Below are positions 1,742 to 30,796 of a stretch of DNA of 32,000 nt, piece by piece (the first letter of the stretch is position 1; each line of letters opens with the position of its first letter). The position numbers and the translations under genes were made by a program. Below the pieces are notes generated by a model. That model was not told the origin of the DNA, did no database searches, and was given only the letters and a program-made list of their open reading frames with translations. This DNA comes from Fibrobacter succinogenes subsp. succinogenes S85 (GTDB lineage: Bacteria; Fibrobacterota; Fibrobacteria; Fibrobacterales; Fibrobacteraceae): the NCBI RefSeq assembly GCF_000146505.1, contig NC_017448.1:2460001-2492000 (forward strand), read 5' to 3'.

Positions 1742-2791
1742 ATGAATTTCGTCCGCATATTCCTTTTGCTGGGTGCGCTTGTCGCGTACTCTTTCGGAGC
1801 ATCCTCTTCTATGGAAAACCTTCTGTTCAATGGCCGCTGGGCCCATGATAACGGCGTAAGCCGCGCAAGTGCGCCTGCCGCATCCATCACGTTCAACGCC
1901 AAGGCCTCAAAGATTACCTTTACGGTCGAAGGCCATTCCCGCTGGCGTCTTGACCGTGACGGCAAGCAGATAGAACAGTTCAAAGTCGATTCCAAGGAAG
2001 AACGCGTGATCAAGGTTGAGGACGACGGCTCTTTCCACAAGTATCGCTTCATCAAGATTAGCGAAAGCGGCGTTCCCGAAATCAAGTTTTACGGCATTTC
2101 CGTCGATGGCGAATTTGGCGAAGCCCCCAAGCCGTCCAGTCGCCGCATCGAGTTCATCGGCGATTCCTTTACCGCAGGCTATGGCTGCGAAGGCTCCTCC
2201 GCCGAAGACGCTCCCGAGTTCGACAAGACGAACGCTTCCAAGAGCTATGCCTACCTCCTTGCTAGCGGTTTCAATGCCGATTACCAGGTGAATGCCTACA
2301 GCGGACGCGGTCTTGTGCGCAACTACGACAACATGGTCCCCGAATGGACGTACGAACGCCTCTATGATTACACGGTCATGGGCTCCGTGACCTCGTATCC
2401 GAAGCCTGAACGCTGGGATTTGGAAAAGTTCCACCCGCAGGTTATTGTGGTTTTTGAAGGAATTAACGATTTTCAGGGCAATCCTCCGTATGCAGATAAA
2501 GGAAAATTCAAGAAAGCGTACGCTAATTTGCTTGATAAGCTCCGCAAAGCCCACCCCGGTGTGAAATTCTTACTTGTTTCCACGAAAGTATGGCCCAATG
2601 ATGACCTCGCCCCGACGATAAAGTCAATTTACGACGCTCAAGTTGCTGCCGGTCACAAGGATTTGGAGTATAAACACGTCCTCACGTCAAATGTCGGCTT
2701 GCATGGCCACCCCGATACCCATTCCCAGGAAGAACTCGCGAACACCTTGAGGCCCATAATAGCCCGGCTTGGACGATGGCTTTCAAGATAA
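1742..2791 (+). CDS. secreted SGNH/GDSL hydrolase, carbohydrate esterase family 2-like (acetyl esterase)
   Basis: It has an N-terminal signal peptide (MNFVRIFLLLGALVAYSFGA). A roughly 130-aa beta-sandwich-like region precedes the block I motif FIGDSFTAGYG, with the Ser codon at 2165-2167. It also has GINDF and a C-terminal GHPDTHSQ (DxxH-type) motif. This two-domain layout is typical of CE2. Confidence 0.8.
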   Translation: MNFVRIFLLLGALVAYSFGASSSMENLLFNGRWAHDNGVSRASAPAASITFNAKASKITFTVEGHSRWRLDRDGKQIEQFKVDSKEERVIKVEDDGSFHKYRFIKISESGVPEIKFYGISVDGEFGEAPKPSSRRIEFIGDSFTAGYGCEGSSAEDAPEFDKTNASKSYAYLLASGFNADYQVNAYSGRGLVRNYDNMVPEWTYERLYDYTVMGSVTSYPKPERWDLEKFHPQVIVVFEGINDFQGNPPYADKGKFKKAYANLLDKLRKAHPGVKFLLVSTKVWPNDDLAPTIKSIYDAQVAAGHKDLEYKHVLTSNVGLHGHPDTHSQEELANTLRPIIARLGRWLSR

Positions 2792-17293: not shown

Positions 17294-17411
17294 AACAGTT
17301 CCTTCTCCGTTGTAAATCCTATCGTTTAAATTTATAAAATGGGAACAATGTAAATGGCAATGTGCTAAAAGATTTCTATAATTTCTAAATCAATTTACGC
17401 AAAAGAATATT

Positions 17412-18578
17412 ATGCAAAAAAGTCCAAACGAAATCGATAATTTTTTAACACCTGACGATACCAAAATTATGAAGGGGATTGCCATTATCTGCATGCTCCT
17501 GCATCATCTTTGGTTTTTCCCGAATCGAATCCCTGGTGGCGGCGTTGAGGGCATATTCACATTGTTTAATGCACCGGCAACATCTTATTTGGGAATTTTT
17601 GGCAAAATCTGCGTCCCGATGTTCTTCTTCTTTGGCGGCTATGGCGTTTACAAGAGTAGCTACGGAAAACCGTACGATATTGTGGGCCGCCTCAAGAGAC
17701 TTTATTTTGCGTACTGGAAAGTCTTCCTTGTTTTCATCCCCATCGGTTTCTTGTTCTTTTCTTCGCAAGAACAGTATTGCAACGATCCTTTTATTTCCAC
17801 TCGTTTTAATAATTTCGTGCCGAGAGAACTGCTTTCGAACTTCTTTGGATTCACTTCAACGTACAACAGGGAATGGTGGTTCCTGATAAGTTATGTGTTT
17901 GCCTTGATTTCTTTCCCGCTTATCAGGGCTGTTATTGACCGCTATTCGGCAAGAATCAATTTGTTCATCATCGTGATTGTGTCGCTCTTGTTTGCGCATA
18001 TTTTCCCTGGGCTTAAAACTGTGACTGCGCTTGGTGTCCTTGGACACAGCCACATGTACCTCCGCTTTTTCTGCCAGATTGCTCCGTATGCGGCATGCTT
18101 CTGGATGGGCGCTGTCGTTGCTCGCAATGGGCTATTTGACCGCCTGCATGGATCGTTGAAACAACATAAGCTTTTGAACCCGCTTGTGGATATCGCCGTT
18201 TGGTGCATGGTCATTGTGATGCGCCAAAATGAAGTGGGTGATATTTTTGACGTGTTCTTTATCCCGGTTTTGACGGTGGCGAGTATGGACTTGCTGAACC
18301 ACGTTAAACTCCTGAAAAAGGGAATTTGGTATCTCGGCCGACAGAGCACCTCGATGTGGCTTATCCATCCGTTCTTCTGCTACTATTTTGATGTCCCGGC
18401 AAAGATTGTCGCGGCTCCGCATTATGCGATTCCGTCGCTGTTGGTGCTTATCGCCATGACGTACATCGCATCGGTACTTTTGGCTTATTTCTGGAAGGGT
18501 GTTGGTTTTGTTTTTCAGAAGGCGAATGCCATGAAGATTAATTTTAAACATTTTGGAGCTTCGGGTGAAAAACAATAA
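17412..18578 (+). CDS. acyltransferase family 3 (membrane O-acyltransferase), second copy
   Basis: The protein is polytopic and has IMKGIAIICMLLHHLWFF near the N-terminus. It is divergent from the first copy across an AT-rich 118-bp spacer. Confidence 0.75.
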   Translation: MQKSPNEIDNFLTPDDTKIMKGIAIICMLLHHLWFFPNRIPGGGVEGIFTLFNAPATSYLGIFGKICVPMFFFFGGYGVYKSSYGKPYDIVGRLKRLYFAYWKVFLVFIPIGFLFFSSQEQYCNDPFISTRFNNFVPRELLSNFFGFTSTYNREWWFLISYVFALISFPLIRAVIDRYSARINLFIIVIVSLLFAHIFPGLKTVTALGVLGHSHMYLRFFCQIAPYAACFWMGAVVARNGLFDRLHGSLKQHKLLNPLVDIAVWCMVIVMRQNEVGDIFDVFFIPVLTVASMDLLNHVKLLKKGIWYLGRQSTSMWLIHPFFCYYFDVPAKIVAAPHYAIPSLLVLIAMTYIASVLLAYFWKGVGFVFQKANAMKINFKHFGASGEKQ

Positions 18579-20301
18579 GTCTCTCCAGTATTTTTTGATT
18601 TGGGGCATCATCTGCCTGCTTGCAAACTTGTTCTGCACGAATGCTGCCGCTTTTGGCGGTGACCAGAACTATTGGGTGGATTGGGTCAAGCAGCTGTCGA
18701 AAAACGGTCTTGAACGTTTTAACGGCAATTATCCTCCGCTTTATGTTTTTTGGCTCTGGATTGTGGCGCAAGTCCATAGCTTGGCAAACATCCCGATAGA
18801 AAAGGGAACTCTTATCAAGTTCTTCTGCCTGTGGCCGGTTTACTTTGGCCATGTTGGACTTGTCGATTTGGCGAGCCGCCTGGTAGCACGCTTCAAGTTG
18901 CCGAAGTACTCTGCACATCTCGTGCTTGCGTTTGTGGCCTTGAACCCTGCGCTTTTGCTCGACGGTCCGATTTGGGGACAGGTCGATTTGTTCCCCTGCA
19001 TCTTTGGCATTGCCGCCCTTTACTGCGTCAACTTCCGCGGACTTTTCAAGTACGCTTCGATGTTCTTTGCGCTTGCGCTCTTGGCAAAGTTCCAGATGAT
19101 TTTGCTTTTGCCGATTTTTGGAGGCATCTTCCTCCGTCGCTATAAGCAGTCCTGGCGCGGACTCCCACTCATGGCGGTTGCAATTGTGCTTGTGCTTTTG
19201 CCGTTCTTTGTCGCAGGGAACCTCTCGGGGCTCCTCACGCATGCTTACCTCAACACGACGGAACAGTACCCGTTCTCGACTTACAATGCCGCAAACACTT
19301 GGATGTTCTTTGTGGGCAATACGAGCCGTGATGCCAATCCGCTTTTCGGGCTCTCGCCGGAAGGTGTTGGATTTTTGCTCTCACCGTCCTGGCTTGGAAA
19401 AATCTTGTTCGTGATTATCTCGGCATACATTTTAAAGTGTGCACTCTTTGCAAAGACGCTCCGCCGCACGTTTGAACTTGCGACTTGGGAAGCTTTTGCA
19501 TTCTTCCTTGTGTTGCCGGGCATGCATGAACGTTATTTGATTTACGCCGTTCCCTTTGCTTGCGTGTGGATGGTTCTCGAAACAAAGAAAGCTTGGATTT
19601 GGACTTTGCTCGTGACAGCTATTTGCGCCATGAATATTTCGATGGTGAATGGCTTCAAGGGTGCGGACTTGTGGGTCCCGGTTTCTGGGCTTGCGCTCCT
19701 CATCTTCATTGCGGGTGTTGTGAACAACTTTGCCCCGCGTGCGTTCCCGGCGCTGATTGAAAAGCTTGCCCGCATCCCGTTCCCGCGCTTTACGCCGTAT
19801 GTGGTGCTTGCTCTGTTCCTTTTCCCGATGCTCATTTCTGAAATTGTCGGACTCATGCCGGTCAATGTGGAACTTTCATCGAACCAGTTCTACCTCACAG
19901 ATTTGCCGATTGACCATTTCACGCAGCAGTACGGGAGGCCTCGTGTGAATCGCGCTGTCGATGGCGCTACGCTTACCGTTCGTGGTCAGCAGTACAAGAA
20001 CGGCATTGGTACGCACGCCAATTCTGAACTGTTCTTCAAGATGCCTGCGGATGCGGACTCGCTCGAATTTGTCGTGGGCATTGATGACGAAGCGGGTGGC
20101 GGTGGCTCCGTGCGCTTTATTGTGGCAACGCCCGAAGAAACGCTCTGGAAAGGTGACGTCGTGTTCGGCAATAGAAAGCCGCAGGCGGGTAAAGTCTATA
20201 TCGGAGGCAAGCAGACGATTATCCTCAAGGCTGATGCCGATGGCGACAACGCTTATGACCATGCCGACTGGCTGAATGTCATCGTGACAAAGAGGAAGTA
20301 A
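18553..20301 (+). CDS. GT-C fold membrane glycosyltransferase (ALG6/8- or PIG-V-like) fused to a C-terminal NPCBM carbohydrate-binding module
   Basis: The N-terminal roughly 440 aa are polytopic, with GDQNYWVDW, NYPPLYVFWLW and DGPIWGQVD loop motifs. The C-terminal roughly 135 aa (about 19890-20298) match the NPCBM pattern (LTVRGQQYKNGIGTHANSELFF...VGIDDEAGGGGSVRFIV...DHADWLN). The start is TTG 18553 or GTG 18565, and either overlaps the upstream gene. Confidence 0.75.
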   Translation: MELRVKNNKSLQYFLIWGIICLLANLFCTNAAAFGGDQNYWVDWVKQLSKNGLERFNGNYPPLYVFWLWIVAQVHSLANIPIEKGTLIKFFCLWPVYFGHVGLVDLASRLVARFKLPKYSAHLVLAFVALNPALLLDGPIWGQVDLFPCIFGIAALYCVNFRGLFKYASMFFALALLAKFQMILLLPIFGGIFLRRYKQSWRGLPLMAVAIVLVLLPFFVAGNLSGLLTHAYLNTTEQYPFSTYNAANTWMFFVGNTSRDANPLFGLSPEGVGFLLSPSWLGKILFVIISAYILKCALFAKTLRRTFELATWEAFAFFLVLPGMHERYLIYAVPFACVWMVLETKKAWIWTLLVTAICAMNISMVNGFKGADLWVPVSGLALLIFIAGVVNNFAPRAFPALIEKLARIPFPRFTPYVVLALFLFPMLISEIVGLMPVNVELSSNQFYLTDLPIDHFTQQYGRPRVNRAVDGATLTVRGQQYKNGIGTHANSELFFKMPADADSLEFVVGIDDEAGGGGSVRFIVATPEETLWKGDVVFGNRKPQAGKVYIGGKQTIILKADADGDNAYDHADWLNVIVTKRK

Positions 20302-21875
20302 TGGACAAGGTCTTTGCTTGGCTGAAATCGCGAACGGCGGCGCAATTTGTCTTTGCTGCAATTTTGCTGTTGGGGACGTTTGCGCGTGTCTATATGTTCG
20401 GTTCAGTGCCGGGCGATATCAACCAGGACGAAGCTTTTGCGGGCTATAACGCCTATACGCTCTTGCACCACGCTGCTGATTCTTACGGCTACCGCTTACC
20501 GGTTTACTTGACTGCCTGGGGTTCCGGCATGAACGCTCTCGAATCGTATTTGATGATTCCGTTTGTAGCGCTCTTCGGGATGCAGGTCTGGGTGATCCGC
20601 TTGCCGATGCTTTTGGTGGGCCTCTTGTCGCTTGCGGCGGTTTACTTCTTGGTGCGCCGATTCTCGAGCGAACGCTTTGCTTTGGGAGCAACACTTTTGC
20701 TTGCGATTTCTCCGTGGCACGTGATGCTTTCGCGCTGGGCGCTTGAATCGAACTTGGCGCCGGGCTTTGTGCTGTTCGGACTTTTCTTCTTTGTGAAAGG
20801 TCTTGAAAAACCGAAGTTCTTGATTGCCTCGGCTGCGTTTTATGGACTCTCGCTTTATGCGTATGCGACCATCTGGGTGGCCGTTCCGTTCATCATTTTG
20901 TTGAACGTACTTTATGCTCTTTGGACAAAGTCTATTCACAACAATCGTTACACTTGGATTTCGCTTGGCGTGCTTGCTGCACTTGCGCTCCCGCTTATGC
21001 TCTTTATGTTCGTGAACAAGGGCGTCATCAATGAAATCCGCTTGCCGTTTATCAGCATCCCGAAGCTTGTTTATTTCCGTGCAAGCGAAATTTCGTTCCA
21101 AAAGATTCCCGAAAATTTCATGAACCTCTGGAACATTTTGAAGAACCAGTCTGATGGGCTCCCGTGGAATTACATCCGCAATTTCGGACTTTTCTATCCG
21201 GTGACACTTGCGTTTTTCTTTATTGGGCTTGTTGAAAACATTTGGCAGGTCGTGCGTGATGTGAAAGCGCGCAAGCTTGGGCTCCCGTTCTTTATGCTTG
21301 CCTGGCTGCTCGCCGCTTTTACGATTGGAATTTTAATCAATGTCAATGTTAATCGCGTGAACTTGATTTTTATCCCGATTATCGTCATGGCTGCGCAAGG
21401 GATTATTATCGCGTTTAGCTATATCCACCCGAAGTTGATTTACGTTCCGCTGGTCGCGTATCTCTTATGCTTTGCAAATTTTGAGCGCGAATACTTTACG
21501 ATTTATAAGGACCAGATTGCAAATCCGTTCTGCGAAGGCATTGGCGATGCTATGGAATTTGCACAGTCGCAGTCGAAACCGGACGATAAAATTTATGTGG
21601 ACCCGGGCGTGAGCTACCCGCGAGTGCTTTTTTACGGCAAGGTGGACCTGAACTCTTACCTTTCGACGGTCCGCTATACGAATTTCCCGAGCGCATTCCT
21701 CTATGTGCACGAATTTGACCGCTATGTTTTCACATTTAATTTGGATAATGCCGATACGCAAGCGGTTTATCTTATGGAAAACAAGGATTCTAGACTTTCT
21801 TGGTTTGAACAGCGTGGCTTTTCGGTCCGTAATTTTGGAAAATATATTGTAGCATACCCCGCAAAATTACTCTGA
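20301..21875 (+). CDS. ArnT/PMT-like GT-C glycosyltransferase (GT39/GT83-like)
   Basis: TAATG overlap with the previous gene. The protein is polytopic. The first-loop acidic motif GDINQDEAF (DE at 20427-20432) is typical of polyprenyl-phosphate-sugar dependent GT-C enzymes. The C-terminus is a soluble domain. Confidence 0.8.
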   Translation: MDKVFAWLKSRTAAQFVFAAILLLGTFARVYMFGSVPGDINQDEAFAGYNAYTLLHHAADSYGYRLPVYLTAWGSGMNALESYLMIPFVALFGMQVWVIRLPMLLVGLLSLAAVYFLVRRFSSERFALGATLLLAISPWHVMLSRWALESNLAPGFVLFGLFFFVKGLEKPKFLIASAAFYGLSLYAYATIWVAVPFIILLNVLYALWTKSIHNNRYTWISLGVLAALALPLMLFMFVNKGVINEIRLPFISIPKLVYFRASEISFQKIPENFMNLWNILKNQSDGLPWNYIRNFGLFYPVTLAFFFIGLVENIWQVVRDVKARKLGLPFFMLAWLLAAFTIGILINVNVNRVNLIFIPIIVMAAQGIIIAFSYIHPKLIYVPLVAYLLCFANFEREYFTIYKDQIANPFCEGIGDAMEFAQSQSKPDDKIYVDPGVSYPRVLFYGKVDLNSYLSTVRYTNFPSAFLYVHEFDRYVFTFNLDNADTQAVYLMENKDSRLSWFEQRGFSVRNFGKYIVAYPAKLL

Positions 21876-21926
21876 GAAGTCGAAATTTGATATATTGGTG
21901 TTCGAAAAAGAATAAGAAGTGTGAAT

Positions 21927-22676
21927 ATGCGAATTTCTACTGTATTTAAGATTTGTTCTTTGACGATGCTTATGGCTGTGGCTTCGTTTGCCCGGCCGAT
22001 TAACGATGGCAACAAGCTCTTTGCCGCTGGCGATTATGCCGGTGCGCTTGAAAAGTACATGAAGGCCCGCGAAGCGGAGCCTGCAAATCCGCTTTTGTTC
22101 TACAATATTGGAACGTGCCAGTACAAGCTCGGCAATTTTGAAGAAGCCAAGAAGGAACTTGAAAGTGCCGTGCGCATGCCGGACAAGAATATGGCTGCTA
22201 AGGCGGCGTACAACTTGGCAAATACGCATTTCCGCGTGGGCGAGAAGGCTCAAGAACCGAGTGCTCGCATTGCGGCCTGGCGAGAATCGGTTGCTTATCT
22301 GAAAAAGGCAATTGACCTCGATAACGATTTTGAAAACGCGAAGAAGAACGTCGAAATTGTCCAGCGCAAGCTCAAGGAAGAACTCGACAAGCAAAAAGAA
22401 AACAAGGACCAGAACCAAAATCAGAACGACCAGAAACAACCTCCGCTGAGCGATAATGCAAAGCAGGTTTTGGCTCGTGCGCTCCAGCTTTGCAAGGATG
22501 GCAAGTATGCCGAAGGCAAGCAGATGCTCGAGAACCTGATTGCCGAAGACGAGACTGCAAGCCAGTTGAGCGGTCACGTGCAGCGCATTGACGACGTTAT
22601 CGAAATCAAAGCCGGTCGTAAGCCCAAGGCAAAGATTGACGCCAGCAACACCGACAACGACCTGGAGGTGATCTAA
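21927..22676 (+). CDS. secreted TPR-repeat protein (BatC-like)
   Basis: It has a signal peptide and TPR pairs (GNKLFAAGDYAGALEKY, FYNIGTCQYKLGNFEEA, AYNLANTHF). A short DQNQNQNDQ run is also present. ATG 21927 is preferred over GTG 21921. Confidence 0.7.
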   Translation: MRISTVFKICSLTMLMAVASFARPINDGNKLFAAGDYAGALEKYMKAREAEPANPLLFYNIGTCQYKLGNFEEAKKELESAVRMPDKNMAAKAAYNLANTHFRVGEKAQEPSARIAAWRESVAYLKKAIDLDNDFENAKKNVEIVQRKLKEELDKQKENKDQNQNQNDQKQPPLSDNAKQVLARALQLCKDGKYAEGKQMLENLIAEDETASQLSGHVQRIDDVIEIKAGRKPKAKIDASNTDNDLEVI

Positions 22677-23443
22677 TGGCTATGCTGAGACGAAAGACGA
22701 AAGACGAAAGACGAGAGAATTGTGTCATCCTGAGCGGAGCCGTTAGGCGGAGTCGAAGGATCTCTGTAGCGTTGGGCTTTGTATTGCTTTTTGCGGTGGT
22801 TGCATTCGCAGCTCCGAAGTCTGCTTCGGCTTACTATGGCGATGCGGCGTTCCAGTACATCGAAAACCGCTTGCCGACGGCAGAAATCACTTGCAACGAA
22901 GGCTTGCAATACTACCCGAACGATCAGAAATTGCAGATGCTCCTCGACCGCATTCACGAAGCGAAAAACGAGCAGCAAAACGAAAATAAGAAGAACGATC
23001 CTAAGAACGACCAGAATCAAGACCAAAATAATCAGGACCAAAACCAGGATCAGAATCAGGACAAGCAAAACCAAGACCAGAATAAAGATCAGCAGAACCA
23101 AGATCAGCAAAATCAGAACCAGAATGGCGACCAGAGCTCATCTAGCGCCCAGAATGACCAAAACCAAGATCAACAGAATCAAGGTCAGAACGGTCAGTCT
23201 AGCGACAGCCAGCAGCAGAGTTCCGATAGCAATGGCGGTGCCGATCAGCAGCAACAGCCTGAACAGTCCGAAGGGAATTCCAGCGACAGTAACGGCGGTG
23301 AACCGGAACAGCAGCCGCTTCAACCTGGTGAAATGACTCCTGAAGAAGCCGCCCAGCTCCTCAAGGACTTTGACGAACAGAATGGCGAACGCAAGCCCTG
23401 GAAACCTGTCCGTGGCCAAGTCCGTCCGGCTAAGGATTGGTAA
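22676..23443 (+). CDS. secreted TPR-like protein with long Q/N/D-rich low-complexity tract
   Basis: A GGAGGTG Shine-Dalgarno lies 5 nt upstream, and there is a TAATG overlap with the upstream gene. A basic N-terminus carrying repeats precedes a hydrophobic signal-like segment (ALGFVLLFAVVAFAAPKSASA). The Q/N/D tract is about 100 aa long. Confidence 0.65.
   Translation: MAMLRRKTKDERRENCVILSGAVRRSRRISVALGFVLLFAVVAFAAPKSASAYYGDAAFQYIENRLPTAEITCNEGLQYYPNDQKLQMLLDRIHEAKNEQQNENKKNDPKNDQNQDQNNQDQNQDQNQDKQNQDQNKDQQNQDQQNQNQNGDQSSSSAQNDQNQDQQNQGQNGQSSDSQQQSSDSNGGADQQQQPEQSEGNSSDSNGGEPEQQPLQPGEMTPEEAAQLLKDFDEQNGERKPWKPVRGQVRPAKDW
22688..22718 (+). repeat. tandem heptamers AGACGAA x3 + AGACGAG + AGA at codons 5-15
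   Basis: Read directly from the sequence. The unit length is not a multiple of three. It is followed by the sequence gtcatcctgagcgg...gtcgaaggatct (22725-22757). Confidence 0.8.
22964..23265 (+). repeat. degenerate hexanucleotide (GAYCAR/AAYCAR) reiteration encoding a DQ/NQ tract
   Basis: Visible reiteration of gaccagaa/caagatcag units. It produces the spurious L/I/V-rich antisense ORF 22673..23110. Confidence 0.7.
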
Positions 23444-23571
23444 GTTCTAACAAGCTTTGTTGTCGGCTTTACAACTCAAGTAAATAAATCTTCACTTTAT
23501 TCATGATTTTTCTTGTACAAAGCGTAGAAAATTTGTACATTAATAAAAACAATTTAATAATGAGGATTTGT

Positions 23572-24459
23572 ATGAAAAAAGTTCTTGCCGTACTCCCTGC
23601 GGTCGCCCTCGCTATGGCGGGTTGCGTATCGTCTTCCGATGATTCCAATTCCGTGGCTCCAACTCCTGCCTCGCTCCCGACGGATTTTATCGTCACTGAA
23701 ATGGGTGAATATAGCTATGCTGCTGACGGCTCCTTAGAAGTCACTAAGGCTACTTGCACGGATTATGCAAATGAAGTTGTCTGGAAAAAGACAACCCAGC
23801 GTGGCTCCTTGACGGATGCTGGTAACGGTACTGCTAAAATGGATTTGGGCGATGGTGATGGCAAGAACACTTATGAATTTAGAGTGGCTGCCGGTGAAAA
23901 ATTCCCGGAAGGCAATTTCTATAAGAGCTCTACTCTCAACGATCCGCTGATTTGGGGTGTCGTTCTTGAAGACCCGTATTATAGTGAAGCTGTTTTCATC
24001 AACACGGATTGCATTTTCCAAAACTTTGGCGAAATGCAAGAAACGCTTGCTTTGATGGTCGGTGTTCCGAAGACTTCTATCAACATGAGCTGCAAGACAC
24101 TTAGCATTGAAGGTCTTGAAATGACTTATGTCTCTCATACGCAGGAGTCCATTGAATATACAGTGTCGTATGGTGGCGTGACTAGCTCTGTCAAGCAGCG
24201 TTTCCGTTATGCGTTTGTTGAAAATGACTGCAAAAAGGCATTTAAGGATTATCAGAAAGAATATGAAAGTGGTGAAACGCAGGAATTCTTCAATTTTGAT
24301 TACTATGATCAGGACATCGATGCTTCCGCTGAATTCACAGACTTGATTATAAATTTCCATAATAGAACGGGCCTTGCTAAGTCTGCGCCGACGCTGACCA
24401 AGAAGCAGATTAAGGATATTTTCCGCGCTGTTGGTTCCAAGATCCGCCGCGGCAAGTAA
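23572..24459 (+). CDS. lipoprotein, unknown function
   Basis: A GAGGA lies 5 nt upstream of ATG 23572. The lipobox is LAMAGC in MKKVLAVLPAVALAMAGC. The track start at 23503 lies in AT-rich promoter-like sequence. Confidence 0.65.
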   Translation: MKKVLAVLPAVALAMAGCVSSSDDSNSVAPTPASLPTDFIVTEMGEYSYAADGSLEVTKATCTDYANEVVWKKTTQRGSLTDAGNGTAKMDLGDGDGKNTYEFRVAAGEKFPEGNFYKSSTLNDPLIWGVVLEDPYYSEAVFINTDCIFQNFGEMQETLALMVGVPKTSINMSCKTLSIEGLEMTYVSHTQESIEYTVSYGGVTSSVKQRFRYAFVENDCKKAFKDYQKEYESGETQEFFNFDYYDQDIDASAEFTDLIINFHNRTGLAKSAPTLTKKQIKDIFRAVGSKIRRGK

Positions 24460-24485
24460 TAAACGTATTCATAATAGGTACAATG

Positions 24486-24511
24486 CACCCTGCAAATGCG
24501 GGGTGTTTTTT
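24486..24511 (+). terminator. Rho-independent terminator
   Basis: The stem is caccctgc paired with gcggggtg (one G-U pair) with loop aaat, followed by TTTTTT at 24506-24511. It lies inside the track's extended ORF start, which argues against that extension. Confidence 0.75.
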
Positions 24512-24563
24512 ATGCGTAAACAATAATGTTGCAATCTTCTGTTTATTTTCATATCTTAATAAT

Positions 24564-27500
24564 ATGGCTATGCGGAAATTTCTCTTTGTTTTGCTTTTGG
24601 TCTTGTCGTTTGTCTCGTTTGCAGTGGCATCGAACACAGTCGCTCGTCCATCGACGAGCGGTAAGCTCCATGTCGTTGGCTCGGAGATTCACGACGAACA
24701 CGGAAATGTCGTTGTTCTCAAGGGCGCAAGTACCCATGGCCTCGCATGGTTCCCGCAGTTTGTGAATAACGGGCTGTTCAAGCAGCTCAGTACAGAATGG
24801 AATGCGAACCTTATTCGCCTTGCGATGTACTCCAAGGACTATGTAGAGGGCAACCGCAAAAAGACTTTAGAACTTTTGCGCAAGGGGGTTGAATACGCTA
24901 TTGCAAATGACATGTACGTTCTTGTGGACTGGCATGTCCTAGAAGATCAGAATCCTAATGTGTATCTTGCCGAGGCGATTTCCTTCTTTAACGAGATGGC
25001 GAGGGATTATGCAAACGTCCCGAACGTGATTTTTGAAATTTGTAACGAGCCCAATGGCGACTGCACCTGGGAAGATATCAAGGAATATGCGCATGTCGTT
25101 ATCCCGGTGATTCGCAGGCACAAACCTGATGCTCTGATTGTCATTGGTACGCCAAATTATGCTCGTGAAATCCAGTACCCGGCAGAGGATCCGCTTCCAT
25201 TCGACAACGTGATGTATTCGTTCCATTTTTACGCGACTTCGCATACTTATGTCTTTCGTGCAAAACTTCGTAATGTCATGAAACGAGGAACGCCGATATT
25301 CGTCACGGAAAGTGGTCTCTGCGAAGAATCGGGCGATGGCAAAATTAATTTCGAAAGTGTAAAACTTTGGTATAGCTTACTAGATTCCTTGCATATGAGC
25401 TATGTTGTCTGGAATCTTTCGAATAAAGAAGAAGAATCCTCAATGATCCGTGACGGTTCTCGCGCCGTGGAATATTTGACGGATAAAGATTTGACGCTTT
25501 CCGGGCGGTTTGCAAAGGCGCTATTCCAAGGAAAACCGATTGATCAAATTACGCTTGAGTATAGCGCGATTGAAAATTTCAAGATTTTAGCCCGTTCTAA
25601 GCCACACAAGGTCTGGCTCATGTTTGCGGGGCCTCTGTTTGTTTTCCTCATTCTGAGTCTTGCGTTGGAAAAGTATAGAAAGCGCTCTAAAAACAAAATA
25701 ATCCGCTCTTACGATGATTTGTTAAAGTACAGTACAGACGAGGCTGCGAAAAAGTTTAACAAGAGCCCGCTCAAGGTGATTCTTGGCGATATGTTCCTCT
25801 TGTTTAGCTCGCTCTGTACGCTCGTTTACCTCTGCTGGCGCGTGACGTGCTCCATTCCGTTTGCGTATGGCTGGATTGCAGTGGCGGGGAGTATCCTCTT
25901 GCTCGTTGTAGAAATTCTCGGCTTTTTTGAATCGTTTGTTCATTACGGTGGTTTGTTCAAGTTGCGCGATCATCCGCTCCCGAAAATTGCAGATGAAGAA
26001 TTCCCGGATGTTGATATTTTCATTTCGACGTACAACGAGCCTGTGGAACTTTTGCGCAAGACAATTATCGGCTGCAAATGCATGGAATACCCGGACAAGT
26101 CTAAAGTCCATATTTGTCTGTGCGATGACAACCGCCGCCCAGAAATGCGCGCGCTCGCCGAAGAGCTTGGCGTGATTTACTTTGACCGCCCGGACAACAA
26201 GGGCGCAAAGGCGGGGAACTTGAATGCTGCTCTTGCTCGGACGAGTTCTCCGTATGTGGTGACATTCGATGCCGACATGATTCCGCAGCGCAAGTTCTTG
26301 CTCAAGACGATTCCGTATTTTGTCGATGCCGACCGCATCAATGCGAGTTTGCCAAAGGAACGTCGTCGCTCGCTTGGATTTATTCAGACTCCGCAAAGCT
26401 TTTATACGCCTGACGTGTTCCAGCATAATCTTTATGCCGAACGCGTTGTGCCGAATGAACAGGATTATTTCTATGACGTGATTGAAGCTGCGAAAACCTC
26501 AACGAATAGCGTGATTTACGGTGGATCAAATACAATCCTTTCCCGTAAAGCGCTCGAAGATATCGGCGGATTCTATACAAAGTCTATTACGGAAGATTTT
26601 GCGACGGGCATGCTGATTGAATCGGCGGGTTATGTGAGCCTTGGGCTTTCTGAACCGCTCGCGTCGGGTGTTGCGCCTTCGACGTTCCAGGAGCATGTGC
26701 AGCAGCGCACCCGTTGGGGTCGCGGTGTGATTGCAACTGCAAAACAGCTCAAGTTCTTGCGCAACCGCAAATTGAATATATCGCAAAAGATGAGTTACTT
26801 AAATTCTGTGCTTTATTGGTTCTCGCCGATTAAGAATCTGATTTACCTGATTTCTCCGTTGATGTTTGCGGTGCTCTGCATCCCGATTTTCAAGTGTACG
26901 CTTGTGGATCTTGCTCTATTCTGGTTGCCAATGCACATATTGCAAATCGCGGCACTCCGTGTTACGAGCCAGGGCAAAACTTCTGCGCAGTGGAGCGGTA
27001 TTTATGAGACTTCCGTGATGCCGTTCCTCCTGATGCCTGTTGTGAAGGAAGTGTTTGGCATAACGCTTTCCAAGTTTAAGGTGACGAAAAAAGAAAAGGC
27101 GAGTTTCCGTAGAGTTGTTGACAAGCGAAGCCTTGTGCCGTTTGCCATCCTTTTGGTGCTCACGCTTGCGGGTATTGTACACATGACTTACATGATGGTG
27201 ACATTGGAATACATCGGAATTTTGGCGGTGTTATTCTGGCTTGTGCGCAATTCGTATTACCTCACGATGTGCTTGTTCCTTGGCTTTGGTCGCGATTCCG
27301 ATGGCGAAAACGTGAATGTCTTTGCGGCCGAGCTTGTTTCGCTCCACAAATGCGATGGCAAGCTTGTAGATGGCGTAACGACTAGGCTTACCGAACACTC
27401 GGTGGATGTTTATGTCGATGAAGTGGACGCACTTTATTTAGGTGAGCAAGTGGAACTTGGGATCTCTACGGATGCCAATGATTTGAATGTCAAGGGAACT

Positions 27501-27701
27501 GTTGTTTCAATTCGGCATTCTTGCAATCCGAAATTGCCAAGCGTTTACACGGTCGAAATTCTTGATTTCGTAGGCCAAAAGGATGAGTTTGTGCAAATGC
27601 TTTACGACCGCACGCCGACATTGCCACAACGCTTGCGTTTTGGTGACGAGTATATTCGCAACCTTTGGACAAATCTAGGATGGCGAATTTTTAGAGCTTA
27701 A
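24564..27701 (+). CDS. fusion protein: periplasmic GH5 endoglucanase + BcsA/CcsA-like processive GT2 beta-glycan synthase + PilZ-like C-terminal barrel
   Basis: - Signal/anchor: MAMRKFLFVLLLVLSFVSFAVA.
- GH5 blocks: VLKGASTHGLAWFPQF; IFEICNEPNG (acid/base Glu codon 25047-25049); FVTESG (nucleophile Glu codon 25308-25310).
- Three TM helices lie at about 25606-25930.
- GT2 motifs: STYNEP; CDDN (26124-26132); FDADM (26268-26276); TED (26589-26597); QRTRW (26703-26717).
- More TM helices follow.
- The last roughly 120 aa are barrel-like.
- There is no Shine-Dalgarno. The sigma70-like hexamers TTGCAA(24529)-17 nt-TATCTT(24552) end 6 nt before the ATG. Confidence 0.9.
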   Translation: MAMRKFLFVLLLVLSFVSFAVASNTVARPSTSGKLHVVGSEIHDEHGNVVVLKGASTHGLAWFPQFVNNGLFKQLSTEWNANLIRLAMYSKDYVEGNRKKTLELLRKGVEYAIANDMYVLVDWHVLEDQNPNVYLAEAISFFNEMARDYANVPNVIFEICNEPNGDCTWEDIKEYAHVVIPVIRRHKPDALIVIGTPNYAREIQYPAEDPLPFDNVMYSFHFYATSHTYVFRAKLRNVMKRGTPIFVTESGLCEESGDGKINFESVKLWYSLLDSLHMSYVVWNLSNKEEESSMIRDGSRAVEYLTDKDLTLSGRFAKALFQGKPIDQITLEYSAIENFKILARSKPHKVWLMFAGPLFVFLILSLALEKYRKRSKNKIIRSYDDLLKYSTDEAAKKFNKSPLKVILGDMFLLFSSLCTLVYLCWRVTCSIPFAYGWIAVAGSILLLVVEILGFFESFVHYGGLFKLRDHPLPKIADEEFPDVDIFISTYNEPVELLRKTIIGCKCMEYPDKSKVHICLCDDNRRPEMRALAEELGVIYFDRPDNKGAKAGNLNAALARTSSPYVVTFDADMIPQRKFLLKTIPYFVDADRINASLPKERRRSLGFIQTPQSFYTPDVFQHNLYAERVVPNEQDYFYDVIEAAKTSTNSVIYGGSNTILSRKALEDIGGFYTKSITEDFATGMLIESAGYVSLGLSEPLASGVAPSTFQEHVQQRTRWGRGVIATAKQLKFLRNRKLNISQKMSYLNSVLYWFSPIKNLIYLISPLMFAVLCIPIFKCTLVDLALFWLPMHILQIAALRVTSQGKTSAQWSGIYETSVMPFLLMPVVKEVFGITLSKFKVTKKEKASFRRVVDKRSLVPFAILLVLTLAGIVHMTYMMVTLEYIGILAVLFWLVRNSYYLTMCLFLGFGRDSDGENVNVFAAELVSLHKCDGKLVDGVTTRLTEHSVDVYVDEVDALYLGEQVELGISTDANDLNVKGTVVSIRHSCNPKLPSVYTVEILDFVGQKDEFVQMLYDRTPTLPQRLRFGDEYIRNLWTNLGWRIFRA

Positions 27702-29002
27702 TTGGCTTCCTTGTCCTTAGGCAATACCAAATTCAAGACTACGGCGAGGATGAATACCACGGCGACGCAGTTTTCGGCGAAGATGGTCTGGATGATCTGC
27801 GGGAAAATTTTGAACATCTGCGATGCGGATGTGAATCCTAGGCCGGTGCTTAAGGACAAGCTAACGATAATCATGTTGCGCTGCGAGAATCCGCTTTTCG
27901 CAATCATGCCGAATCCTGCGAAGAGGATGGAACCGAACATCATGATGGTGCAGCCGCCGAGGACGGCTTGCGGGATGGTCGTGAGGAGTGTGCCTACGGG
28001 CGGGAAGAGGCCGCCGAGGAGCATGATGCCTGCGCTTGTCGCAATGGCGAAACGGTTCACGACGCCAGAGAGCGAGGCGAGGCCGACGTTCTGGCTGAAG
28101 GATGTAATCGGGGTGCAGCCGAAGAGTCCGGAAATGGAGCTGACAAAGCCGTCGCAGCTGATGGCGCCTCCCATCTCGACTTTGTGAATTTGGCGCTTGA
28201 GGGCGCCGCTGCAAAGGGCGCTGGAGTCACCGACGGTTTCTGTGGCGGACACGAGATAGATGGCGATGACGGAGAGAATGGCGCCCAAGTTAAATTCCGG
28301 GGTGAACGGGAGGAACTTGGGGAGTGCGAAAAAGCCGTTGTTTGTGATGCCCGAGAAATCGACCATGCCCATGCAGAGTGCGAGAATGTAACCGACAATA
28401 AGGCCGACGAGCACGGAGAGCGAACGGAGGAATCCCTTGGCGAAAACTTGCGTGAGCAAACAAGTGAGGAGCGTGACGCTTCCGACGATCCAGTTCTGTG
28501 CAGAGCCGAAGTCAGCGGCGCCTTGACCGCCTGCGAATGAATTAGCGCCGATGGGCAAAAGCGAAAATCCGATGGAGGTCACGACGGTAGCCGCAACGAT
28601 GTGTGGGATGAGCTTGAGCCAGTATTTGGCGCAGAGGCCGAGAAGTCCTTCGACGATACCGCCGACGATGACGGCGCCCATGAGCGTTCCCATGCCTTGC
28701 GACACTCCGATGGAAATGGAAACGGAGAGGAATGTGAAACTGATGCCCATGACGATGGGGAGTCGGGAGCCGATTTTCCAAACGGGGTAGAGCTGGATGA
28801 GTGTGCCGATGCTTGCGATAATCATGCAGTTCTGGATAAGCGAGGCGGTGAGGCCTTTTTCAATCCCGACGACGTTTGCAAGGATGATGATCGGCGTAAT
28901 GTTGCTCACGAACATGGCGAGCACGTGCTGCAAGCCGAATGGAATTGCCTGTAAAAGCGGAACGCGTCCGTCAAGCTGGTAGATGTTGTCCGAAGTCTTC
29001 AT
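27698..29002 (-). CDS. pbuX: NCS2-family xanthine/uracil permease
   Basis: At 434 aa it is a polytopic protein resembling a nucleobase:cation symporter-2. It lies immediately downstream of xpt, as in the Bacillus xpt-pbuX operon. Confidence 0.85.
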   Translation of the reverse strand: MKTSDNIYQLDGRVPLLQAIPFGLQHVLAMFVSNITPIIILANVVGIEKGLTASLIQNCMIIASIGTLIQLYPVWKIGSRLPIVMGISFTFLSVSISIGVSQGMGTLMGAVIVGGIVEGLLGLCAKYWLKLIPHIVAATVVTSIGFSLLPIGANSFAGGQGAADFGSAQNWIVGSVTLLTCLLTQVFAKGFLRSLSVLVGLIVGYILALCMGMVDFSGITNNGFFALPKFLPFTPEFNLGAILSVIAIYLVSATETVGDSSALCSGALKRQIHKVEMGGAISCDGFVSSISGLFGCTPITSFSQNVGLASLSGVVNRFAIATSAGIMLLGGLFPPVGTLLTTIPQAVLGGCTIMMFGSILFAGFGMIAKSGFSQRNMIIVSLSLSTGLGFTSASQMFKIFPQIIQTIFAENCVAVVFILAVVLNLVLPKDKEAN

Positions 29003-29869: not shown

Positions 29870-30796
29870 ATGAAAAAGAAAAATGTTACTACTCACAAGT
29901 CACTCGAAGACTATCTCGTAAAGCCGGGCGAACAAAGTCCGTATGCAAATTTGTTGATTGATCTCGCTTTTAAGAAAGCGTTTGACCCAGACAAACCTGT
30001 CAGCCGCGAAAACCTAGTGAACCTGTTGAACGACCTTTTGGCTCCGCAACTCAAGCATCCCATCAAGAGCGTGAAAACCCGCAATGTGGCTAAAAATCTG
30101 AGCGGAAGTAAGGTGTCCCGCACGGCGATTTTTGACTTACACTGCGAAGACGATGCTGGAAATTTGATAGAAATTGAAGTTCAGATTCGTGAAATGGACA
30201 ACTTCTTGAAACGTCTTGCGTTCTATGCGAGTGAACTTGTTGCGAACCAGGCGGAACCCGGTGAATGGGATTATGACGTGAAGCCGACTTATGTCATTGC
30301 TCTTGCTCAGTACCGCATTTTCGAAAATGACAATCGAATTGTTCACCGCGCTACGACTTTGGATTTGGAAACCGGCGAACAGATTATGGATGCGTATAAC
30401 TATACGATTATTGAACTTTCGAAGGTCCCGTTCTTTATCGGCAAGGACAATCTTAGCAAATGGCTGTTCTTTTTCCGTTATTTGGATAAGCTGCGAGAGC
30501 TCCCCGAAGAGCTTTCTGACAAAAAATTCAAACAGTTGACGGAGAGTTCCAAAGTATCTAAATTCAGTAAAAAAGAATTCGAGGCTTATCAGAAAATGCA
30601 TCACGACAGATGGGATCATAATGTCCTTAGACGGGGCTTCTTTGAGGAATTCGCGGATGAAATCAACGCGGAGATTTCTAAAAATGTATCTAAAAATACT
30701 CGTGAAATTGCGAAGAAGATGAAAAGCAAGAATATGCCTATTGAAGAAATTATTGAATTTACCGGCCTTACCGAAGAAGAGGTCAAGGCTCTATAG
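29870..30796 (+). CDS. Rpn-family / PD-(D/E)XK (PDDEXK_2) recombination-promoting nuclease or putative transposase
   Basis: The family-typical layout is present: N-terminal LIDLAFKKAF, the nuclease core AIFDLHCEDDAGNLIEIEVQ and RLAFYASEL. The C-terminal tail is MPIEEIIEFTGLTEEEVKAL. Confidence 0.85.
   Translation: MKKKNVTTHKSLEDYLVKPGEQSPYANLLIDLAFKKAFDPDKPVSRENLVNLLNDLLAPQLKHPIKSVKTRNVAKNLSGSKVSRTAIFDLHCEDDAGNLIEIEVQIREMDNFLKRLAFYASELVANQAEPGEWDYDVKPTYVIALAQYRIFENDNRIVHRATTLDLETGEQIMDAYNYTIIELSKVPFFIGKDNLSKWLFFFRYLDKLRELPEELSDKKFKQLTESSKVSKFSKKEFEAYQKMHHDRWDHNVLRRGFFEEFADEINAEISKNVSKNTREIAKKMKSKNMPIEEIIEFTGLTEEEVKAL

Follow-up and report, generated by a model that had tools for sequence, protein, structure and literature searches.

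The locus raises the question of whether a single membrane protein of Fibrobacter succinogenes S85 makes a β-glucan and also cuts it, and what product such a protein would deliver. The window, the whole 32,000-nucleotide stretch of DNA that was analysed, contained an uninterrupted reading frame on the forward strand (24483..27701; 1072 residues counted from the first ATG in the ORF listing), in which the earlier note had placed a GH5 endoglucanase and a BcsA-like GT2 synthase on one polypeptide. The ATG at 24564 (MAMRKF...), giving 1045 residues, was the better start codon, because the ATG at 24483 lay inside a terminator-like hairpin situated between the upstream lipoprotein-like gene and the fusion gene, the homologues were about 1044–1048 residues long, and the public gene call in CP001792.1 was exactly the same 1045-residue protein. 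By inference, the gene is Fisuc_1661/FSU_2150. The features are collected in Table 1.

Table 1. Features of the fusion gene and its product, in window positions
Feature	Residues	Position	Strand	Evidence or remark
Terminator-like hairpin and T-run		24485..24512	+	3' of upstream lipoprotein-like gene; hairpin with T-run also placed at 24485–24506
Whole fusion gene		24564..27701	+	1045 codons and stop; GH5, TM, BcsA-like GT2, PilZ-like
Signal peptide, MAMRKFLFVLLLVLSFVSFAVA, then S	1–23	24564..24632	+	Hydropathy; AxA cleavage-type site; no lipobox Cys
Periplasmic GH5 catalytic domain (predicted location)	30–325	24651..25538	+	Pfam, PDB sequence matches, Foldseek, conservation
Short helix, then TM1	335–345; 347–375	25566..25688	+	Hydropathy, model; tethers GH5
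TM2 and TM3	402–465	25767..25958	+	Hydropathy, model
Cytoplasmic GT2 catalytic core (predicted location)	469–735	25968..26768	+	Pfam, NCBIfam, conservation, Foldseek
C-terminal membrane region	739–830; 854–908	26778..27287	+	Hydropathy, model
PilZ-fold barrel, degenerate c-di-GMP motifs	909–1015	27288..27608	+	hhalign, model, alignments
C-terminal helix	1029–1044	27648..27695	+	Model and alignment

An assembly or sequencing artefact, in which a missed stop or a frameshift joined two genes, would give the same appearance. However, the full-length reading frame and the domain order were repeated at the best 80 species-level genome loci, complete genomes and cultured isolates among them, as well as in over 120 independent protein clusters (48–93% identity). 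This recurrence and the identical gene call refuted the artefact, which we give practically no weight, and the intact gene of 1045 codons was confirmed.

The two catalytic domains

The GH5 domain was complete. PF00150 (GH5) matched residues 44–288 (E = 7.6e-55) and scored 186.7 bits, where the cut-off is 23.5; positions 2–271 of the 272 in the profile were aligned. The acid/base Glu162 (25047–25049) and the nucleophile Glu249 (25308–25310) were encoded by the codons that the earlier note had assigned to the catalytic glutamates. Together with Arg85, His124, Asn161, His221, Tyr223, and Trp283, they constitute the eight signature residues established for GH5, and all eight were invariant in 79 aligned homologues. 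The domain was 37–43% identical to GH5_2 endoglucanases, and its PDB sequence matches included 4xzw, 6gjf, 3pzt, and 1a3h (E values of about 1e-68 to 1e-76). The (β/α)8 fold was well matched to 3pzt, 1a3h, and 6gjf by Foldseek, with TM-scores of 0.93–0.96 and r.m.s.d. values of 1.3–1.6 Å. The best solved relatives were those of the Bacillus and Clostridium Cel5A/EglS group, and the entries 1egz and 1tvn, labelled 'family GH 5-2', matched as well. Judged by these matches, the domain appears closest to the GH5_2 endo-β-1,4-glucanases. The CcsZ-type subfamily GH5_25 was rejected, as 6uje matched with an E value of only 4.9e-12 over 168 residues versus about 1e-76 for the GH5_2-type entries.

The synthase half contained the complete set of processive-synthase motifs that had been claimed for it, DDN (residues 521–523), DAD (569–571), TED (676–678), and QQRTRW (713–718), encoded at 26124–26129 (DD), 26268–26276, 26589–26597, and 26700–26717, respectively. 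Residues Asp521, Asp522, Asp569, Asp571, Thr676, Glu677, Asp678, Gln714, Arg715, Arg717, and Trp718 were invariant in the 79 homologues. The gating-loop motif FKVTKK (residues 838–843; 27075–27092) was located between the two C-terminal helix blocks, and Phe838, Val840, Thr841, and Lys843 of the FxVTxK pattern were kept in every one of the 79 sequences. The Pfam GT2 models matched residues 481–770, Cellulose_synt matched residues 666–813, and the NCBIfam model TIGR03030 (CelA) matched residues 411–970 with an E value of 7e-106. Foldseek aligned the protein with BcsA in 4p00_A (E = 1e-42, target TM-score of 0.76, about 746 columns) and in 9b8v_E (E = 1e-45), and the sequence alignment with E. 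coli BcsA extended over 570 residues (E = 2e-89).

The equivalog cut-offs of the cellulose synthase models were not reached, with 354.9 versus 699.1 bits for TIGR03030 and 286.3 versus 992 bits for NF008558. In addition, IYGGSN was found in place of the canonical FFCGS of BcsA. Given the TIGR03030 score and this replacement, the polymer may be something other than plain cellulose. The GT2 domain was the best-conserved stretch of the protein, with an identity of 73–78%, and the GH5 domain was 50–57% identical across the fusion family. These identities, and the invariance of the catalytic residues of both domains in 79 sequences, indicate that the two halves are selected together.

Membrane topology and the PilZ-like tail

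The whole protein was modelled confidently by AlphaFold2, with a pLDDT of 87 and a pTM of 0.76. Three transmembrane helices (residues 347–375, 402–429, and 437–465) were found by hydropathy and in the model, and TM1 was followed by a Lys/Arg-rich loop that would be cytoplasmic. The alignments with the BcsA proteins of E. coli and R. sphaeroides began in the TM2/TM3 region. The signal peptide was a low-confidence helix in the model and, as usual for such sequences, showed little conservation (23% identity). On the basis of the signal peptide, the three transmembrane helices, and the Lys/Arg-rich loop, the GH5 domain is predicted to lie outside, in the periplasm, and the GT2 domain inside. This is the arrangement that the earlier note had deduced from a signal or anchor sequence followed by three helices, and both hydropathy and the model agreed with it. 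The further transmembrane helices and the barrel-like tail that it had described were also present, and the tail was modelled as a barrel of six strands with a helix after it. In BcsA, the place of this helix is taken by a C-terminal interface helix (PMC8892547).

The tail had been described as holding the PilZ position without the canonical motifs, and c-di-GMP control had therefore been called uncertain. The position, the fold, and the loss of the motifs stood, and the kinship with PilZ could be settled. The tail was aligned by hhalign with 68 canonical BcsA PilZ tails at a probability of 99.3% (E = 7e-21), and the top Foldseek matches of a tail-only model were 4i86 (CeSA PilZ, target TM-score of 0.71), MotI, YcgR, and Alg44. 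The tail is demonstrably homologous to the PilZ domain of BcsA. Nevertheless, Pfam PilZ (PF07238) gave no match to the tail even at E ≤ 10, whereas the nearest unfused relatives (P0128, P0135, and P0140) did match it.

The RxxxR motif was absent, with Gly914 and Asn918 aligned to Arg696 and Arg700 of E. coli BcsA. Residue 914 was never arginine in the 79 homologues, and residue 918 was lysine or arginine in 57 of them. The (D/N)xSxxG motif was also absent, and the segment Arg941-Leu-Thr943-Glu-His-Ser946 was aligned there, so that Asp723, Ser725, and Gly728 of E. coli BcsA corresponded to Arg941, Thr943, and Ser946, respectively. Within the family, the D/N position was variable, the serine was replaced by threonine, and the glycine position held serine, asparagine, or glycine. 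Instead, a new set of residues, Gly909, Arg910, Glu915, Val917, Glu944, and His945, was invariant in the barrel. The first arginine of RxxxR holds BcsA in its resting state (PMC10374906). RiGT2, a BcsA-like synthase from a Gram-positive bacterium, works without BcsB and without c-di-GMP and still needs its PilZ domain.

Neighbourhood, distribution, and relation to known systems

None of the genes for BcsB, BcsC, or BcsQ was found within the 32-kb window, and PF03170 had no match in the window ORFs scanned. No outer-membrane exporter or channel gene was found among the window ORFs or the neighbours at homologue loci, and no conserved neighbour gene was shared across the best 80 loci. Proteobacterial BcsA requires the tail anchor of BcsB (PMC8892547). 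Genes for GGDEF, HD-GYP-like, cNMP, and two-component proteins recurred beside the homologues, and a GAF-GGDEF gene was located directly downstream in the two nearest Fibrobacter relatives. Control by a nucleotide second messenger through some route is therefore possible. The cyclase at 2851, which the earlier note had mentioned when calling c-di-GMP control uncertain, lies 20 kb away and had no demonstrable connection to the fusion gene.

The survey of databases showed the full-length fusion in several phyla. Its carriers included Fibrobacter, rumen Treponema, Butyrivibrio, Oscillospiraceae, Atopobiaceae, and Erysipelotrichaceae, and most members were from monoderm Firmicutes or Actinobacteria. 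Horizontal transfer has carried the family into four or more phyla of bacteria from herbivore guts. Related synthases carried a C-terminal GH5 (P0127, P0175, and P0137) or a C-terminal GH16 (P0177 and P0206), each with an extra hydrophobic, transmembrane-type segment immediately N-terminal to the hydrolase, which would again place the hydrolase outside. Hydrolase–synthase fusions have arisen repeatedly, with a differing domain order and GH family.

The earlier note overstated the novelty of a covalent hydrolase–synthase fusion, as NdvB/Orphan of pseudomonads had already been described with a periplasmic GH17 domain whose cleft lies directly above the transmembrane region of a BcsA-like GT2 (PMC10237404). 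That protein has no PilZ domain, is encoded outside bcs operons, and is proposed to synthesise, cleave, and cyclise β-1,3-glucan (PMC10237404). Both proteins combine a signal peptide, an N-terminal periplasmic TIM barrel of clan GH-A, a transmembrane region, and a cytoplasmic BcsA-like GT2 in one polypeptide. Both are encoded outside a bcs operon and lack a functional PilZ domain, and for both, chain synthesis followed by processing at the channel exit is proposed. However, the hydrolase is GH17 (β-1,3) in NdvB/Orphan and GH5 in the fusion, and NdvB/Orphan has no PilZ barrel at all while the fusion keeps a degenerate one. The GT2 of NdvB/Orphan is also only distantly similar to BcsA (about 21% identity over a core of 240 residues), unlike the 570-residue alignment of the fusion, and taxa and habitat differ. 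The fusion would therefore work like the NdvB family without being a member of it. The GH5 version of such a fusion appears to be undescribed; CAZy lists Fisuc_1661 under GH5 and, separately, under GT2.

The fusion shares with proteobacterial BcsA (4p00 and 9b8v) the GT2 fold, the transmembrane channel, the D, DxD, TED, QxxRW, and FxVTxK motifs, the C-terminal PilZ-fold barrel with its terminal helix, and a glucanase in the system. In proteobacterial Bcs systems, however, the glucanase BcsZ belongs to GH8 and is a protein in its own right, BcsA depends on BcsB, BcsC exports the polymer, and the PilZ domain binds c-di-GMP, whereas the fusion has a covalently attached GH5, neither BcsB nor BcsC in the window, and no PilZ motifs, and it scores below the TIGR03030 equivalog cut-off. 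The clostridial CcsA/CcsB/CcsZ system (PMC7710045) resembles the fusion in having a Firmicutes BcsA-like synthase with a membrane-anchored extracellular GH5 as cognate hydrolase, but CcsZ is a separate GH5_25 protein, CcsA keeps a predicted PilZ domain, and CcsB and acetyltransferases accompany it (PMC7710045). RiGT2, the mixed-linkage glucan synthase of Romboutsia ilealis (PMC10374906), is likewise a stand-alone BcsA-like GT2 with a PilZ barrel; in contrast, its 637 residues include no hydrolase domain and retain RxxxR and NxSxxG, and it was absent from the 150 nearest representatives of the fusion protein. The BcsAB and BcsZC fusions (PMC7112194 and PMC9693552) join subunits of the cellulose machinery, and neither joins a hydrolase to a synthase.

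Proposed function and its significance

We consider the fusion to be, with a probability of roughly 0.6, a self-contained β-glucan synthase-translocase with its own processing enzyme attached. The GT2 domain would polymerise glucose from UDP-glucose in the cytoplasm into a chain with β-1,4 linkages in it, which would be threaded through the synthase's own transmembrane channel and would exit into the periplasm beside the tethered retaining GH5 endoglucanase. Cleavage there would release short cello-oligosaccharides, or would limit and release a longer polymer. Since no outer-membrane exporter is encoded nearby, we lean towards a short product in the diderm Fibrobacter, either released or periplasmic. 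With the c-di-GMP-binding residues gone, control would not operate through the classical c-di-GMP/PilZ switch, and the barrel is probably kept as a structural element or to receive another input. What we infer in this reading is the nature of the substrate and the linkage, that the two activities are coupled, how large the product is, and how the protein is regulated.

Other readings of the same architecture were weighed. The protein could be a classical exopolysaccharide synthase whose product, a long polymer of cellulose-like or mixed-linkage type, would serve adhesion or biofilm, with the GH5 domain as a BcsZ/CcsZ-like accessory for stalled chains and quality. The cellulose operons of proteobacteria, clostridia, and actinomycetes alike include a glucanase (PMC8892547 and PMC7710045), in the monoderm majority of the family the polymer would come straight to the cell surface, and the signalling genes that recur close by are of a kind typical for biofilm control. 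This reading is nevertheless rather improbable, as no outer-membrane channel gene was found nearby in the diderm Fibrobacter and Treponema, long chains are difficult to square with an endoglucanase tethered 1:1 where the channel opens, and none of 25 papers naming both cellulose production and F. succinogenes was found to describe such production by this species. Tailoring in the manner of NdvB, in which the GH5 domain would act mainly as a transglycosylase that cuts and re-ligates the nascent chain by cyclisation or branching into a defined periplasmic or secreted glucan, seems unlikely. GH5 and GH17 are alike retaining (β/α)8 enzymes of clan GH-A, which speaks for it, as do the orphan locus without an exporter and the layout shared with NdvB/Orphan, whose GH17 domains show trans-β-glucosylation (PMC10237404). 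However, the GH5 domain superposes closely on ordinary hydrolytic GH5_2 enzymes, is 37–43% identical to them, and carries no transglycosylase mark in its sequence. Cyclic β-1,4-glucans are also not known as products of bacteria.

Finally, the two halves could be functionally unrelated, with the GH5 domain as a degradative cellulase anchored by a membrane protein or the GT2 domain as a relic. Fisuc_1661 is one of the 31 cellulases tallied in the S85 genome paper, and cellulose degradation in Fibrobacter uses envelope-bound enzymes. But the GT2 half is the best conserved, with all of its catalytic and gating motifs invariant; hydrolase–synthase fusions are repeated in other orders and GH families; and a periplasmic enzyme tethered to the inner membrane cannot reach insoluble fibre. 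This makes an unrelated pairing very unlikely. In favour of the self-processing synthase, the gene is transcribed, and at low pH it behaved unlike the majority of the 30 further cellulases listed, of which 18 were down (PMC5442110).

On the reading as a self-processing synthase, S85 has ten GH5 "cellulases" of which one is probably biosynthetic rather than degradative; this bears on tallies of degradative enzymes and on how expression data are read. The protein would be a natural combination of synthase and glucanase in one polypeptide, apparently needing neither BcsB nor c-di-GMP, and a compact system for how the long-debated glucanases of the BcsZ, CcsZ, and KORRIGAN type act on nascent chains. 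More tentatively, and with less than even probability, the family may represent an unrecognised class of self-processing β-glucan synthases, widespread in herbivore-gut bacteria, in which a BcsB- and c-di-GMP-independent channel feeds a tethered GH5 or GH16 matched to the linkage and defined oligosaccharides, not a polymer, are exported. F. succinogenes synthesises and releases cellodextrins, so far ascribed to phosphorylases acting in reverse. If the class exists, it would provide a UDP-glucose-driven route to cellodextrins in this organism, and the released cellodextrins could serve cross-feeding, priming of cellulose adhesion, or osmoprotection of the envelope. The spread over at least four phyla, together with the parallel GH16 and C-terminal GH5 fusions, suggests that coupling of synthesis to cleavage is a general, overlooked way to soluble β-glucan products in gut ecosystems.

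The fusion gene and its product

The fusion gene occupied a single open frame, without interruption, in the ORF listing of the window. The first ATG of this frame fell within a terminator-like hairpin and T-run located 3' of the upstream gene. Homologues from the protein cluster search were 1044–1048 aa long, and the identical protein in the public annotation of CP001792.1 was called as 1045 aa. The ATG at 24564 was therefore taken as the correct start, giving the uninterrupted 1045-codon ORF described in an earlier note made from the sequence alone. Long ORFs on the antisense strand, such as one of 234 aa, overlapped the conserved coding frame and were most likely shadow ORFs.

Positions of features in the window and at two related loci
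Feature	Position	Strand	Remark
Open frame of the fusion gene	24483–27701	+	first ATG at 24483
Terminator-like hairpin and T-run	24485–24506		
Fusion gene	24564–27701	+	GH5, TM, BcsA-like GT2, PilZ-like tail
Acceptor-site motif	26512–26529	+	aa 650–655
Antisense ORF	25722–26426	-	234 aa
Esterase	1742–2791		CE2-type N-terminal domain, GDSL lipase domain
GGDEF gene	2851–4188		PF00990, E = 3e-40
Acyltransferase	16142–17293	-	Acyl_transf_3
Acyltransferase	17412–18578	+	Acyl_transf_3
NPCBM-domain protein	18553–20301		
ArnT-like glycosyltransferase	20301–21875		PMT_2
TPR protein	21921–22676		
Low-complexity protein	22676–23443		Q/N-rich
Lipoprotein-like protein	23503–24459		no Pfam match
Xanthine/uracil permease	27698–29002		convergent with the fusion gene
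Transposase	29870–30796		PD-(D/E)XK nuclease family, PF12784, E = 3.5e-35
GAF-GGDEF diguanylate cyclase, locus L015	13261–14634		same strand as the homologue
GAF-GGDEF diguanylate cyclase, locus L006	13358–14734		same strand as the homologue

In the S85 genome paper, Fisuc_1661/FSU_2150 was the sole entry in both the GH5 cellulase table and the GT2 list, and we therefore infer that it is the fusion gene. The paper labelled it an 'endoglucanase' with a signal peptide and uncharacterised activity, and its double listing went without comment. In a transcriptome at pH 5.65, Fisuc_1661 changed 2.2-fold, and 18 of the 31 listed cellulases were down by more than 1.5-fold (PMC5442110). The gene is therefore expressed, and out of step with the bulk of the degradative cellulases.

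Profile searches placed GH5 (PF00150) at aa 44–288 (E = 7.6e-55), GT2 models at aa 481–770, and Cellulose_synt at aa 666–813, in line with the two enzymes proposed in the earlier note. The NCBIfam model of the cellulose-synthase catalytic subunit, TIGR03030, matched aa 411–970 (E = 7e-106), although its score of 355 bits was below the equivalog cut-off of 699. The protein is thus BcsA-like but cannot be classed as a true cellulose synthase. Among solved structures, aa 30–320 matched Bacillus/Clostridium-type Cel5A endoglucanases (E ~1e-68 to 1e-76, ~40% identity), whereas the GH5 part matched clostridial CcsZ (6uje, GH5_25) at only 5e-12. Residues 410–896 matched BcsA of E. coli and Rhodobacter at ~1e-65.

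The catalytic residues of both enzymes were invariant in a full-protein alignment of 79 sequences. They comprised the GH5 signature residues Arg85, His124, Asn161, Glu162, His221, Tyr223, Glu249, and Trp283, including both catalytic glutamates noted earlier, and the processive-synthase residues Asp521/Asp522 (DD), Asp569/Asp571 (DxD), Thr676-Glu677-Asp678 (TED), and Gln714-Arg715-X-Arg717-Trp718 (QxxRW), all likewise noted before. The gating-loop residues Phe838, Val840, Thr841, and Lys843 were also invariant. On average, the GT2 core was 78% identical to the S85 protein, the GH5 domain 57%, the C-terminal TM region 59%, and the tail 51%. Judged from this alignment, purifying selection acts on both enzymes as one unit. 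The acceptor-site motif was IYGGSN in the fusion clade and IYAGSN or IFGGSN in many relatives, compared with FFCGS in canonical BcsA; the difference might bear on linkage specificity.

Hydropathy analysis gave a signal peptide (residues 1–23, AVA|S), TM segments at about residues 350–368, 405–425, and 437–457, and a further block across residues 753–896. The 15 residues following TM1 held seven Lys or Arg. Taken with the signal peptide and the odd number of TM helices, this positive-inside loop puts the GH5 domain in the periplasm and the GT2 domain in the cytoplasm, as first proposed. The AlphaFold2 model built on the 79-sequence alignment (pLDDT 87, pTM 0.76) agreed with this topology. It was composed of a (β/α)8 domain (residues 30–325), a short helix (335–345), three helices (347–375, 402–429, and 437–465), a GT-A core, helices across residues 739–830 and 854–908, and a tail of six strands (924–1001), a helix (1006–1014), and a terminal helix (1029–1044). 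When the model was compared with the PDB using Foldseek, it aligned with BcsA (4p00_A) over 746 columns with a target TM-score of 0.76, and with GH5_2 enzymes with r.m.s.d. values of 1.3–1.6 Å. The short helix and TM1 after the periplasmic domain resembled the tail anchor of BcsB, which consists of an amphipathic helix and a TM helix (PMC8892547). Speculatively, they might replace BcsB.

Distribution of the fusion and related synthases

Among 5.8 billion protein clusters searched, at least 120 full-length proteins (1030–1095 aa) had an identical Pfam architecture, at 51–93% identity. Scanning a single genome for each GTDB species gave 541 relatives, and the fusion was present in all of the best 80, which were examined as loci; the match was essentially full length in each except locus L016, where it was shortened by a contig end. 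This recurrence excludes a missed stop codon, a concern raised in the earlier note. The carriers among these 80 loci included many Fibrobacter, the rumen Treponema sp. C6A8 and JC4, cultured Butyrivibrio (XPD2002, FCS014, LC3010, NC2002, and JL13D10), Pseudobutyrivibrio MD2005, Ruminococcaceae YRB3002, Oscillospiraceae, Atopobiaceae/Coriobacteriia, Erysipelotrichaceae, and Solobacterium. Almost all of the loci came from the ruminant or horse gut. Neighbour joining on the synthase part recovered the fusion family as monophyletic and distant from E. coli BcsA. The copies of Treponema sp. C6A8 and JC4 (loci L010 and L013, 68–69% identity) nested within the Fibrobacter clade, which indicates recent horizontal transfer between phyla within the rumen.

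An exhaustive HMMER search of 1.84 billion representatives with residues 400–1045 gave 7586 matches, 1344 of them at E ≤ 1e-30, and the top 150 were inspected. N-terminal GH5 fusions of the same design were found in the representatives P0072, P0124, and P0125. A further fusion, P0122, had an N-terminal GH5 domain too diverged for the GH5 profile of the fusion family to match. GH5 was fused at the C-terminus in P0127, after a degenerate barrel, and in P0175 and P0137, which had no barrel; GH16 was fused at the C-terminus in P0177 and P0206. An extra hydrophobic segment preceded every C-terminal hydrolase, as would be needed to place it outside the membrane. The C-terminal GH16 and GH5 synthases came from gut metagenomes, one of them from the termite-protist endosymbiont Ca. 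Paraimprobicoccus trichonymphae, and the GH16 fusion cluster held 208 member sequences. The repeated occurrence of such fusions, in different orders and with two GH families, provides strong comparative evidence that synthase and hydrolase would act on a shared chain. The choice of hydrolase family may follow the linkage made by the synthase.

The PilZ-like tail

When the tail was searched as a single sequence, no PilZ was found in Pfam even at E ≤ 10, and no PDB chain was matched. However, the alignment of the family profile to E. coli BcsA carried on through its PilZ domain, and the tail profile matched one built from 68 canonical BcsA tails with 99.3% probability (E = 7e-21, 122 columns, hhalign). 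The best structural matches of a tail-only model (pLDDT 73) were PilZ domains, namely those of CeSA (4i86, target TM-score 0.71), BcsA, MotI, YcgR, and Alg44. The tail is therefore a PilZ homologue, whose relationship surfaced only by profile and structure methods. The PilZ position proposed in the earlier note thus held, and so did the loss of the canonical RxxxR and D/NxSxxG motifs. Residues Arg696, Arg700, Asp723, Ser725, and Gly728 of E. coli BcsA corresponded to Gly914 (Gly in 68 of the 79 sequences and Arg in none), Asn918 (Lys or Arg in 57 of 79), Arg941 (variable), Thr943 (mostly Thr), and Ser946 (Ser, Asn, or Gly), respectively. The fusion family had its own invariant tail residues, Gly909, Arg910, Glu915, Val917, Glu944, and His945, as well as an acidic stretch, GRDSDGE.

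An assignment of Arg910 as the first arginine of RxxxR, with only the second lost, was ruled out by an alignment of 108 relatives and by hhalign, both of which placed the true RxxxR positions at Gly914 and Asn918. Arg910 was part of a separate 'GR' motif common to canonical relatives such as P0128 (FILGRRFFRVSERV). The glutamate partner of the BcsA autoinhibitory salt bridge was also considered as a discriminator. The position eight residues before QxxRW was His, Ser, or Thr in the family; the nearest relatives with a canonical PilZ also have no Glu there, so that this position does not discriminate.

Breaking the salt bridge of the first RxxxR arginine reportedly made BcsA constitutively active, in work by Morgan and colleagues from 2014. 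This arginine (Arg580 in Rhodobacter/Cereibacter sphaeroides) keeps the gating loop locked in the absence of c-di-GMP (PMC10374906). Its replacement by glycine argues that the classical c-di-GMP switch does not operate in the fusion protein. RiGT2, the glucan synthase of Romboutsia ilealis, shows that activity can depend on a PilZ barrel that does not bind c-di-GMP (PMC10374906); the RiGT2 motifs were not found among the 150 nearest representatives of the wider family. None of the hydrolase-fused proteins among these had a Pfam PilZ match, and those keeping the barrel had degenerate c-di-GMP motifs, whereas the nearest unfused relatives, P0128 (Oscillospiraceae), P0135 (Lachnospiraceae), and P0140 (42–44% identity), had a canonical PilZ with RxxxR and DxSxxG. 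Regulation through c-di-GMP bound directly by the PilZ domain is unlikely. The new conserved tail residues may receive another input, or neighbouring signalling genes may act at the level of transcription.

Genomic neighbourhood and proposed function

No BcsB, BcsC, BcsQ, or other Bcs/Ccs component was found among the window ORFs scanned. The stretch upstream of the fusion gene (16142–24459) held envelope or polysaccharide-type genes, described as a same-direction run. Among the 80 loci, this gene order recurred in the two closest Fibrobacter MAGs (L006 and L015) and in no other. These genes possibly modify the glucan. Downstream in S85, the permease gene overlapped the stop codon of the fusion gene by 4 nt. 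In the same two MAGs, a GAF-GGDEF diguanylate cyclase gene stood directly downstream; it was absent from the S85 site, where the permease gene stood instead. A transposase gene lay just past the permease and phosphoribosyltransferase pair, and could mark a rearrangement point explaining the missing GGDEF gene.

No conserved neighbour gene emerged after clustering all flanking ORFs from the 80 loci, the large ORF 'families' being generic ABC ATPases and signalling domains. By raw recurrence, the other signalling genes beside homologues encoded an HD_5 protein, a double cNMP-binding protein, a PAS-adenylate/guanylate cyclase, STAS-kinase and SpoIIE proteins, and hybrid histidine kinases. The cyclase that the earlier note had seen at 2851 was confirmed as a GGDEF gene. 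Between it and the fusion gene lie 20 kb with unrelated housekeeping genes, including those for DXP synthase, polyprenyl synthetase, OMP decarboxylase, and M18 aminopeptidase. The esterase gene beside it is a candidate for an ordinary Fibrobacter hemicellulose esterase.

In the proposed mechanism, the GT2 domain would make a β-1,4-containing glucan from UDP-glucose and translocate it, and the tethered GH5 domain would cut the glucan as the chain emerges. We give this reading a probability of roughly 0.6. For the diderm Fibrobacter, short released or periplasmic oligosaccharides are favoured over a long exopolysaccharide, because no exporter is encoded in the window; for the monoderm majority of the family, either product is possible.

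Reviews and surveys reported only BcsAB and BcsZC fusions (PMC7112194 and PMC9693552), the glucanase being otherwise a separate gene, namely BcsZ (GH8), CcsZ (GH5_25), or GH5_1. The literature searches turned up no description of GH5 fused to BcsA. The closest precedent was NdvB/Orphan of pseudomonads, composed of a signal peptide, a periplasmic GH17 TIM barrel with its cleft just above the TM region, and a BcsA-like cytoplasmic GT2 without PilZ. Its gene is not part of the bcs operon, and its suggested role is to synthesise, cleave, and cyclise β-1,3-glucan (PMC10237404). The Fibrobacter protein has the same layout, but with a GH5 endoglucanase in place of GH17 and a synthase much closer to BcsA. 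The hydrolase-synthase architecture of the earlier note stood, and its newness only in part. The protein is no new category: NdvB already shows the design principle, each domain belongs to a known family, and CAZy lists the gene under both GH5 and GT2. The GH5-BcsA-like fusion itself appears to be undescribed; it is widespread and experimentally tractable, and occurs in a model organism where it is mislabelled as a cellulase.
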